Positions 36,961 to 38,384 of a DNA stretch of 47,142 nt are shown here, piece by piece. A program made the translations under genes and the position numbers. The stretch comes from Escherichia phage 2G7b. Position 1 is the first letter of the stretch. The number at the start of each line of letters is the position of its first letter. A model generated the notes under the pieces. That model was not told the origin of the DNA. It made no database searches and saw nothing but the letters and a program-made list of their open reading frames with translations. The stretch is taken from sequence record NC_049954.1; one strand, 5' to 3'.

Positions 36961-37620
36961 TCACCCAAACGTCTCTTCAGGCCACTGACTAGCGATAACT
37001 TTCCCCACAACGGAACAACTCTCATTGCATGGGATCATTGGGTATTGTGGGTTTAGTGGCTGTAGAAACACCTGACCGCTATCCCTGATCAGTTTCTTGA
37101 AGGTAAACTCATCACCACCAAGTCTGGCTATACAGAAATCGCCTGGCTCAACAGCCTGCTCAGGGTCAACCAGAATTAACATCCCGTCAGGAAAGCTGGG
37201 CTTGGAACCTGTTGGTGCGGTCATTGAGTTACCTTCAACCTCAAGCCAGAATGCAGAGTCACTGGCTTTTTTGGTTGTGCTTACCAATCTCTCCGCATCG
37301 CCTTTGGTAAAGGTTCTGAGTTCTGGAGAGAACATCCCAGCCTGAACATGAGAAAAAACAGGGTACTCATATTGTTTTTTAACTGGGGCCGATGAGTATT
37401 CGCCAACAGGTGAAAATGTCCCGTCGTGGTTGAATGATATGTTATCAATACCAAGGTATTTAAACACCACTCCAATATCACTAAGAGATGGATGACGAGA
37501 TCCGCGCAACCAGTGTCCAATCCCACCCTGCGTCATACCTAGCTCTTCGGCTAACTTCTCTTGAGTTATGCCGAGCTCTTTCATTCTGGATCTAGCCAGT
37601 TCATACCATTTCATTTTCAT
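36961..37620 (-). CDS. cI: CI-type prophage repressor, hybrid: non-lambda N-terminal HTH domain with lambda CI C-terminal LexA-like domain
   Basis: C-terminal ~150 aa ([44 protein letters not shown]) match lambda CI including the Ala-Gly cleavage site and Ser/Lys dyad; N-terminal [40 protein letters not shown] is different. Start codon uncertain (37620, 37614 or 37656). Confidence 0.85.
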
Positions 37621-37662
37621 GTTCTTATTATTACGCTTTGTACTGGAACCATCCATGCACAA

Positions 37663-37730
37663 TGTGTATTTTTACTTGTATTCTTAAAGTACATATTGTA
37701 TTTTTTATTCGTGTTTACTATGGAGGGCAT
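37663..37730. promoter_or_regulatory. OR operator / pR-pRM divergent promoter region
   Basis: 68-bp AT-rich spacer between divergent cI and cro containing palindromes CACAaTGTG and TACAtatTGTA; GGAGGG ribosome-binding site before cro. Confidence 0.6.
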
Positions 37731-37946
37731 ATGAGCAACCTACGAAAATATCGAGAGTCACTGAATATCTCTCAAACAACACTTGCTAAGGCAGTTGGAT
37801 GCACACAGGGAGCTATCGGACATTGGGAATCTGGTCGTCGCTTCCCAGACCTTAAAACATGCCGTGCTCTTGTTGCGTGCCTAAACAAGTTAGGCGCAAA
37901 AGTCAGTCTTGATGACGTGTTCCCGCCGGAACACAAAGCCGCTTAA
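37731..37946 (+). CDS. cro: Cro-type HTH repressor (XRE family), non-lambda
   Basis: 71-aa ORF MSNLRKYRESLNISQTTLAKAVGCTQGAIGHWESGRRFPDLKTCRALVACL..; divergent from cI. Confidence 0.8.
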   Translation: MSNLRKYRESLNISQTTLAKAVGCTQGAIGHWESGRRFPDLKTCRALVACLNKLGAKVSLDDVFPPEHKAA

Positions 37947-37949
37947 TAA

Positions 37950-37990
37950 GCGGATCCGCTCTTTGTAACAACGGACATTCGTCCTACGTC
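37950..37990 (+). promoter_or_regulatory. putative nutR (boxA-like CGCTCTTTGTAACAACG followed by hairpin GGAC-attc-GTCC)
   Basis: Directly after the cro stop; boxA-like motif shares GCTCTTT..AACAACG with the nutL candidate. Confidence 0.55.
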
Positions 37991-38087
37991 GCTGAAAAGC
38001 GAGTTCCAAGATATCTGACCAACTAAGGCCATATGCGTTTCCACGCATACCTTTCAACTAACTATTCACTATTGGAAATCTTAAGAA

Positions 38088-38384
38088 ATGGAAAGAACAA
38101 GTTACAGCAAACTATCACAGCGTGAAGTTGATCGCGCAGAAACAGATTTACTTATCAATCTGTCAGCTATTACCCAGCGCGGTCTGGCAAAGATGATTGG
38201 CTGTCATGAATCGAAGATAAGCAGAACGGATTGGAGATTTATTGCTTCGGTCTTGTGTGCTTTCGGAATGGCATCAGACATCAGTCCGATTAGCAGGGCT
38301 TTTAAGTATGCGCTTGATGGACTCACCAATAAAAAACGCCCGGCGGCAACCGAGCGTTCTGAACAAATCCAGATGGAATTCTGA
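38088..38384 (+). CDS. cII: CII-type transcriptional activator, hybrid: non-lambda N-terminus with lambda CII C-terminus
   Basis: 98-aa ORF; C-terminal ..LTNKKRPAATERSEQIQMEF matches lambda CII; N-terminal part differs. Confidence 0.75.
   Translation: MERTSYSKLSQREVDRAETDLLINLSAITQRGLAKMIGCHESKISRTDWRFIASVLCAFGMASDISPISRAFKYALDGLTNKKRPAATERSEQIQMEF

Follow-up and report, generated by a model that had tools for sequence, protein, structure and literature searches.

The Immunity Region of Escherichia Phage 2G7b: A VT2-Sakai-Type Lysogeny Switch in a Lambda-Like Genome, Probably Built as a Chain of Independently Assorting Modules

According to PMC10742460, which cites Fattah et al. (2000), the CI repressor of phage VT2-Sakai has high homology to lambda CI in its C-terminal part and low homology in its N-terminal part, and the article attributes to the same work a cross-immunity of VT2-Sakai and lambda. 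In vitro, lambda CI binds the six VT2-Sakai operators weakly, with an apparent dissociation constant (KDapp) of 3.7–6.4 uM (PMC10742460). The CI group named "Clade I" by Llarena et al. (2022, PMC8951638) shows 61% identity to lambda CI. A half-lambda repressor and its six operators are already found in the literature and in database annotation. Here, the immunity region of Escherichia phage 2G7b (NC_049954.1) is compared with these systems; it comprises cI, cro, and cII, at positions 36961–38384 of a stretch of 47,142 nt which was analysed at its full length and is called the window. The region is assigned to the VT2-Sakai / Stx2 II / 1717 immunity type, which is already known and very common, and the window CI probably belongs to Clade I. 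With a probability of about 0.9, the window is a lambda-like phage genome in which the lysogeny switch of the VT2-Sakai / Stx2 II group replaces that of lambda, and which forms a chain of independently assorting modules.

The window shares with the VT2-Sakai / Stx2 II group the same CI DNA-binding domain, the same Cro, and the same set of operators in the regions OR and OL, whereas the lambda CI N-terminal domain (NTD), lambda Cro, and lambda operator sequences are all absent. The CI NTD is found at at least 94% identity in 61 phage records (100% in Stx2 II, 1717, and YYZ-2008 and 98.8% in VT2-Sakai), and over its full length CI is matched at 95% identity or more in these 61 records, with 99.5% for VT2-Sakai. 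Among VT2-Sakai, Stx2 II, 1717, YYZ-2008, Nil2, and 2851, CI is 99.5–100% and Cro 100% identical to the proteins of the window. At the DNA level, the immunity region of 1.5 kb is matched at 100% by PhiR11_1 and is ~96% identical in Stx2 phage 1717, YYZ-2008, Nil2, Stx2 phage II, the Stx1 phage of Morioka V526, 2851, and the PA phages. Among 5426 complete E. coli genomes, 776 contain the block of cI-NTD, OR, and cro. The next-closest CI NTDs, from Salmonella P22-like phages, are ~50% identical; the CI type of P22 itself is ruled out, with 37% identity only. The comparison with classical phages that the first-pass annotation had proposed gave a divided answer: the cII body is the HK97 allele, and cI and cro are of the VT2-Sakai type and not of the P22, lambda, or HK97 type. 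No classical lambdoid phage with this cI/cro type was among the matches listed, phages 21, 434, HK022, and phi80 being without a direct comparison.

The three genes are located where the first-pass annotation had placed them, that is, cI at 36961..37620/37662 on the minus strand and cro (37731..37946) and cII (38088..38384) on the plus strand. Its view of CI as a hybrid also holds. The C-terminal 135 amino acids are identical to lambda CI at 134 positions and the N-terminal part at 18 of 84 (21%). Full-length identity of cI and cII to lambda was looked for by alignment and is not the case. Relative to lambda, the recombination joints lie inside both genes as had been claimed, at 37371/37372 in the hinge of cI and at 38321/38322 in cII. 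The lambda-like block of cI (36960–37371, 94.9% DNA identity) extends exactly from the cI stop codon to about lambda codon 102, and its 21 DNA differences consist of 20 synonymous and one non-synonymous change. Within the longest open reading frame (ORF; 36961..37662, minus strand), the hinge, the C-terminal S24 domain, and the stop codon are placed at 36961..37371 and are of lambda type, and the N-terminal HTH_3 DNA-binding part of VT2-Sakai type is at 37372..37620. Residues Ala94-Gly95, Ser132, and Lys175 are present and align with lambda A111-G112, S149, and K192, and the joint sits 10 codons ahead of the Ala-Gly cleavage site. Pfam matches to HTH_3 (E = 2e-10, residues 11–58) and Peptidase_S24 (E = 1e-28), together with a match to the lambda repressor structure PDB 3bdn (E = 3e-96), identify CI as a LexA/CI-type phage repressor with predicted autocleavage and operator binding.

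In CII the situation is less balanced. CII had been presented as a second hybrid with a lambda C-terminus, and this stands for the tail LTNKKRPAATERSEQIQMEF, which is identical to lambda at 20/20 positions on a non-lambda body, but it is a tail only and not a domain. The body, codons 1–78 (38088..38321, plus strand), is of the HK97 / Stx2 II type and has 69 of 77 amino acids identical to HK97, and the last 20 codons with the stop codon (38322..38384, plus strand) are of lambda type, with 100% DNA identity to Louie. The whole CII remains a full-length member of its family (Pfam Phage_CII, E = 3e-34, positions 1–92 of 91). The tail opens a lambda-like block (38322–40815, 98.2% DNA identity) which begins 63 nt before the cII end and extends rightward; its first part, 38322–38424, has 97% DNA identity to lambda and 81.6% to Stx2 II. 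An oop-like antisense RNA gene is located there on the minus strand (38323..38442), with a promoter-like site TTGAGT-17-CATAAT at 38442–38414, a fold of two hairpins (RNA fold z = -2.2), and a terminator stem at 38360–38333 followed by a T run, the region being 97% identical to lambda. The lambda homology in cII begins ~4–10 nt past the oop terminator. This stretch of cII is accordingly read as the portion which doubles as the oop gene and travels with the replication module, and the cII joint as the attachment point of the lambda oop-O-P module; both readings are based on sequence comparison.

A search of Rfam over 33–41 kb at E ≤ 1 gave chance-level matches only, with none for nut sites or oop. 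In the window, oop and O directly follow cII. Relatives have additional genes at this point, after cII and ahead of the replication gene; these encode an HNH endonuclease in Louie (positions 1939–2739 of its stretch) and a T5orf172/MUG113 protein in a Citrobacter prophage (positions 1186–1902 of its stretch).

The promoter PRE is proposed on the minus strand, with TTGC-N6-TTGT at 38110–38097 and a -10 TAAGAT at 38083–38078. The repeat occupies nt 10–23 of cII, exactly where lambda has its CII-binding repeat TTGC-N6-TTGC, even though no relationship exists between the two CII bodies in DNA sequence. As a genome-wide signal, TTGC-N6-TTGY has no statistical support (6 motif matches in the window vs 6.25 expected), and since the motif is no rarer than chance, it is the position that argues for this candidate PRE.

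The first-pass annotation had regarded everything between the two joints as one immunity cassette of roughly 0.9 kb (37.1–38.3 kb). A non-lambda block does exist there, of 950 bp, but its left edge is at 37.37 kb and it is composite. If this phage had been created by the insertion of such a single cassette into a lambda genome, through one crossover in the hinge of cI and another within cII, this would explain that the DNA similarity to lambda falls from ~95–98% to nothing exactly at 37371/37372 and 38321/38322, in a backbone which is 97–98% lambda. The relatives, however, divide the cassette at the cro stop codon. Louie matches 36967–37946, that is, up to the last base of that codon, at 92.9% and continues with a complete lambda cII, whereas HK97 has lambda-type cI and cro and then matches 37956 (boxA of nutR) to 38424 at 89.8% DNA identity. 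In Stx2 II, 96–97% identity from cI through the cII body drops to 81.6% at 38322–38424. These three comparisons indicate that cI-NTD/OR/cro, nutR with the cII body, and the cII tail with oop are separate modules. The combinations in Louie (VT2-type immunity, lambda cII) and HK97 (lambda immunity, HK97-type cII) are reciprocal, so cI/cro and the cII body assort independently and the notion of one cassette is not tenable. Furthermore, the left neighbor of cI is neither that of lambda nor that of Stx2 II, and the same full-length cI is present in Stx phages with backbones unrelated to lambda. The origin of this phage by two crossovers is therefore improbable. In different phages the joints recur at the same points: in the hinge of cI, at the stop codons of cI and cro, and at the end of oop.

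The age of the cI joint points in the same direction. An origin of this joint within this phage is not supported: all 61 records with this NTD share the lambda-type C-terminal domain (CTD), and none of these phage records has this NTD on a different CTD. Divergence from lambda amounts to 5.1% in the cI C-terminal DNA and 1.8% in the O-P block (p = 2.5e-4); with Stx2 II as reference, it is 3.6% in the cI C-terminal DNA and 2.9% in the cassette (p = 0.5). Against an origin by two crossovers into lambda, the cI CTD DNA thus shows a significantly greater distance to lambda than do the adjoining lambda modules, and its distance to Stx2 II does not exceed that of the cassette (identities of 96.4% to Stx2 II vs 94.9% to lambda). 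This pattern indicates that cI was inherited whole and that the hinge joint is older and ancestral to the entire immunity group.

A history without any recombination, in which cI and cII are orthologues of the lambda genes and rapid divergence, driven by selection for a new specificity, changed their DNA-binding parts while their C-terminal parts were conserved, could refer to the fast evolution of specificity-determining domains and to the single Pfam family that contains both CII proteins. The transition, however, is a step within a few bases and not a gradient, and even the synonymous sites of the CTD are nearly identical (20 synonymous changes in 136 codons). The same CII tail is found on three different cII bodies, the same CTD on at least two NTD types, and the reassortment seen in Louie and HK97 contradicts divergence without recombination, which makes this history very improbable. 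Lambda hybrids with foreign immunity regions are common laboratory constructs, but an assembly chimera or laboratory hybrid is hardly credible here, as the same arrangement occurs in wild phages (faeces, sewage), in hundreds of complete E. coli chromosomes, and in PhiR11_1, PhiR57_1, and PhiR63_2 (hosts in the records: E. coli MG1655 or ECOR13), and a divergence of 1–7% from every relative excludes a recent construct. The modular composition with a VT2-Sakai-type switch remains the preferred reading.

The claim of the first-pass annotation that cro is non-lambda is confirmed: Cro (71 aa) is without meaningful alignment to lambda Cro and is of the HTH_3 type, while lambda has Pfam Cro. It is 100% identical to the Cro of Stx2 II and a paralogue of the CI NTD (35% identity, E = 8e-11), the motif TQGxIGHW in the helix-turn-helix (HTH) region being common to both. 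The resemblance is consistent with Cro and CI reading the same operator sites.

Six putative 17-bp operators are annotated in AP005154, and all map to the window with 0–1 mismatch. Three are placed at OL, that is, OL1 TAGTACGATATGTACTT (35239..35255, over the -10 of the proposed promoter PL and conserved in Louie), OL2 CAATACAATTTGTTGTA (35264..35280, over the PL -35), and OL3 TATAACGCTTTGTATTT (35297..35313). The other three are at OR, namely, OR3 TATTACGCTTTGTACTG (37629..37645, over the -10 of the proposed promoter PRM), OR2 ATGCACAATGTGTATTT (37655..37671), and OR1 AAGTACATATTGTATTT (37687..37703, over the -10 of the proposed promoter PR). All six have AC at positions 5–6 and GT at 12–13, and their symmetrised consensus is AAGTACAAATTGTACTT, in contrast to TATCACCGCCAGTGGTA in lambda. 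Three tests which make no use of the AP005154 annotation support these sites. In a leave-one-out scan with a position weight matrix (PWM), every operator ranked between 1st and 9th of 47126 positions (OR1 1, OL1 3, OL2, OL3, and OR3 6, OR2 9). The pattern ANTACNNNNTGTANT with up to one mismatch gave 23 matches where 5.6 ± 2.7 were expected, a number reached in 0 of 100 shuffles. In alignments with Stx2 II and Louie, the latter being more distant, 91 of 102 operator columns are conserved vs 89 of 133 columns of spacers and flanks (Fisher p = 5e-5); the contrast holds for OL alone (p = 4e-5) but does not reach significance for OR taken by itself (p = 0.11), where the promoters are conserved as well. 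The same six sites have the top PWM scores in the OL and OR regions of VT2-Sakai, which shares their order and spacing.

The prediction that the non-lambda block carries its own operators is thus borne out for OR1–OR3. Immunity specificity is not confined to that block, as it also needs the three OL sites in the separate non-lambda block 34158–35359. Each of the three palindromes listed in the first-pass annotation overlaps an operator (OR1, OR2, and OL2, respectively), but two are in the wrong register. TACATATTGTA (37690–37700) is exactly the core of OR1. CACAATGTG (37658–37666) overlaps OR2 in a register different from AC-N5-GT, and TACAAtttgTTGTA, reported at 35255–35268, is actually at 35267–35280, 12 bp away, where it overlaps OL2 in another register as well. 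Both registers are judged wrong because relatives break the palindromes and retain AC-N5-GT: CACAATGTG is broken in the OR2 of Louie (...CACAAGATGTA...) and TACAAtttgTTGTA in the OL2 of Stx2 II and Louie (...TTGTTCTA). The list was also incomplete, as OR3, OL1, and OL3 had been missed.

Two further groups of operator-like sequences were noticed. A seventh site, AAATACAATTGGTTATG (35411–35427), has a PWM score of 13.7, the next after the six, and lies ~100 bp beyond OL3 within a lambda-like island; it is identical in lambda and VT2-Sakai and may be coincidental. At 34338–34364, within a sieB-like gene (34178–34759), the overlapping operator-like sequences ATTACTGGATGTATT and ATTACATCCTGTTGT make a 15-bp palindrome, GGATGTATTACATCC.

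The promoters were read by hand. The proposed PR (plus strand) has the hexamers TTTACT-17-TATTGT, and the proposed PL (minus strand) TTGATC (35266–35261)-17-TACTAT (35243–35238). For the proposed PRM (minus strand), a -10 AATAAT at 37632–37627 and a weak -35 TGGATG at 37655–37650, abutting OR2, are suggested. This -10 ends six nt upstream of ATG 37620, and relative to that ATG, as the proposed PRM start, the center of OR2 is at -43 and that of OR3 at -17. The geometry resembles lambda, in which OR3 also covers the PRM -10 and the respective centers are at -42 and -19.

Database annotation (PhiR11_1, PGAP, AP005154) starts cI at ATG 37656, for a protein of 231 aa. The 12-codon extension, within 37621–37662, spans OR3 and the edge of OR2, and 4 of its 12 positions vary among three relatives. 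Compared with Stx2 II, it has two differences, both non-synonymous, while in the remaining 657 nt all differences are synonymous (16/16). The CI homologue of SPN9CC begins at the equivalent of Met17. On account of the promoter geometry, the substitution pattern, and this homologue, we propose that the true start is 37620 (or 37614) and that a 219-aa CI would be made from a leaderless mRNA, the annotation being 12 codons too long.

Some points weigh against the reading presented here. Databases annotate the 231-aa cI, and the extension stays open in all relatives. A sigma-70 promoter scanner with a 9-of-12 threshold did not call PR, PL, or PRM. The operators are 25 and 33 bp apart at OL and 26 and 32 bp at OR, and the distances OR1–OR2 (32 bp) and OL2–OL3 (33 bp) differ from the 23–24 bp of lambda, so lambda-style pairwise cooperativity cannot simply be assumed; cooperativity of CI through its lambda-type CTD is plausible by analogy. 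Operator occupancy, PRM activation, the leaderless start, the PR and PL hexamers, and PRE are what we infer from sequence and from analogy with lambda. An attempt to determine the direction of the original cI swap, that is, whether lambda or the VT2 type is the recombinant, failed because both NTD types have collinear distant relatives: the CI of SPN9CC shows 48% N-terminal and 81% C-terminal identity, and a Citrobacter prophage CI is 64% and 88% identical to lambda in the respective parts.

To the left of the switch, the non-lambda block 34158–35359 (N/nutL/OL) is 93.5% identical to Stx2 II and is found with at least 80% query coverage in 56 phage records, a number near the 61 with this cI type. 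It contains a non-lambda N antiterminator of 90 aa on the minus strand (34776..35048; Pfam N_peptide, E = 2e-32). The ORF is open up to 35120, with the likely start at Met25 (35048), and PhiR11_1 annotates the 273-nt form. A candidate nutL (35148..35191, minus strand) consists of boxA GCTCTTTAA (35191–35183), a hairpin GTCGACTCTCGAC (35177–35165), and a boxB-like hairpin GGCTGAAAAGCC (35159–35148), and relatives have an annotated boxA under the nutL stretch. Similarly, a candidate nutR (37958..38001, plus strand) has boxA CGCTCTTTG, a hairpin GGACATTCGTCC, and a boxB-like hairpin CGCTGAAAAGCG; both assignments are inferred from the sequence. The two candidates have an unusual layout in common, in which boxA is followed by a first hairpin, a conserved TACGT spacer, and another hairpin, whose loop is GAAAA. 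The first hairpin differs in sequence between nutL and nutR, and its pairing is kept.

Next to this block, a lambda-like island of 130 bp (35360..35489, minus strand; 91.5% identity to lambda 35708–35833) carries the cI-operon terminator, with a stem at 35482–35461 followed by a T run. BLAST against J02459 detected no DNA similarity to lambda in 34158–35359, 35490–36959, and 37372–38321.

The rex slot, from the cI stop codon to the operon terminator, contains two low-GC ORFs on the minus strand. The first encodes a 285-aa protein at the position of RexA (36010..36867), which on structural evidence has the RexA/RdgC fold, and the second a 163-aa protein at the position of RexB (35481..35972) with four hydrophobic segments by hydropathy. 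As in lambda, the two genes are located on the same strand between cI and the operon terminator, the sizes are close to those of lambda RexA and RexB (285 vs 279 aa and 163 vs 144 aa), the second gene encodes a protein with four hydrophobic segments, and the RexA-like protein adjoins a multi-pass membrane partner downstream of cI. They differ in that sequence homology to RexA or RexB was detected by none of Pfam, PADLOC, BLASTP, and hhalign (hhalign probability <1%). The 285-aa protein belongs to an unannotated PHROG, different from that of RexA, and the 163-aa protein has no Pfam, PADLOC, or PHROG match. The family is very rare, the 285-aa protein having nine clusters among 5.8 billion proteins and 16 representatives among 1.84 billion. 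In the Citrobacter prophage, the pair is conserved at ~78% and 77% identity and immediately follows a lambda-like cI; it is also conserved downstream of cI in a second contig. In other phages of this immunity type the slot is occupied differently, with one 173-aa ORF in Stx2 II and VT2-Sakai and nothing in Louie. The two genes most likely form a highly diverged Rex-like pair with a putative function in exclusion.

Taken over its full length, the window represents a complete genome of the lambda-like kind, from cos to cos, in which the lambda-like blocks (BLAST against lambda J02459) total 27.9 of 47.1 kb. Positions 1–18433 show 97% identity to the lambda head and tail genes. The int region, the b region, the nin region, and the Q-lysis region are non-lambda. 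From 33500 to 41000 (7.5 kb), the sequence is 100% identical to Escherichia phage PhiR11_1 (PV340547). With lambda, the window has in common the gene order, the three plus three operators, the divergent PRM and PR, and the terminator island. Near-identity to lambda extends beyond the CI hinge and CTD to the CII tail, oop, O, P, and ren. The differences concern N, the two nut sites, and the body of cII, and other genes take the place of rexAB. The phages of the VT2-Sakai group share the lambda-type cI CTD with the window, but their backbone is that of Stx phages (Traversvirus) and not lambda-like, and their cII tail, oop, and O-P are of the HK97/HK022 type, in contrast to those of lambda in the window.

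From left to right, the modules are N/nutL/PL/OL, the terminator island, the rex slot, the cI CTD, cI-NTD/OR/cro, nutR with the cII body, the cII tail with oop, and O-P. In the proposed working of this switch, dimers of CI (~219 aa) would bind all six operators (17 bp, three each at OR and OL), repress PR and PL, and from OR2 activate a lambda-like leaderless PRM, while Cro, as the paralogous HTH_3 protein, would read the operators of CI. CII, with its HK97-type body and its lambda tail, predicted to be targeted by FtsH, would activate PRE in the 5′ end of its own gene, and oop would act antisense to the cII tail. Cleavage stimulated by RecA at Ala94-Gly95 would lead to prophage induction.

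As the match to lambda CI over the hinge and the oligomerisation domain is 134/135, both repressors might together form mixed dimers or higher oligomers in cells with both prophages, a tentative suggestion. If true, mixed oligomers would functionally couple two formally different immunity groups and could either account for the cross-immunity credited to Fattah et al. (2000) or cause mutual destabilisation. Equally tentative, and separate from it, is the idea that the 285/163-aa pair represents a new branch of Rex-type abortive infection which cannot be recognised by sequence. As an orphan pair, always downstream of cI and Rex-like by structural evidence, it would widen the known range of Rex-type systems. 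Useful by-products of the comparison are a precise module map, the evidence that cI is annotated 12 codons too early, and this Rex-like pair. The region itself illustrates lambdoid mosaicism cleanly, its joints lying at the boundaries of domains and genes.

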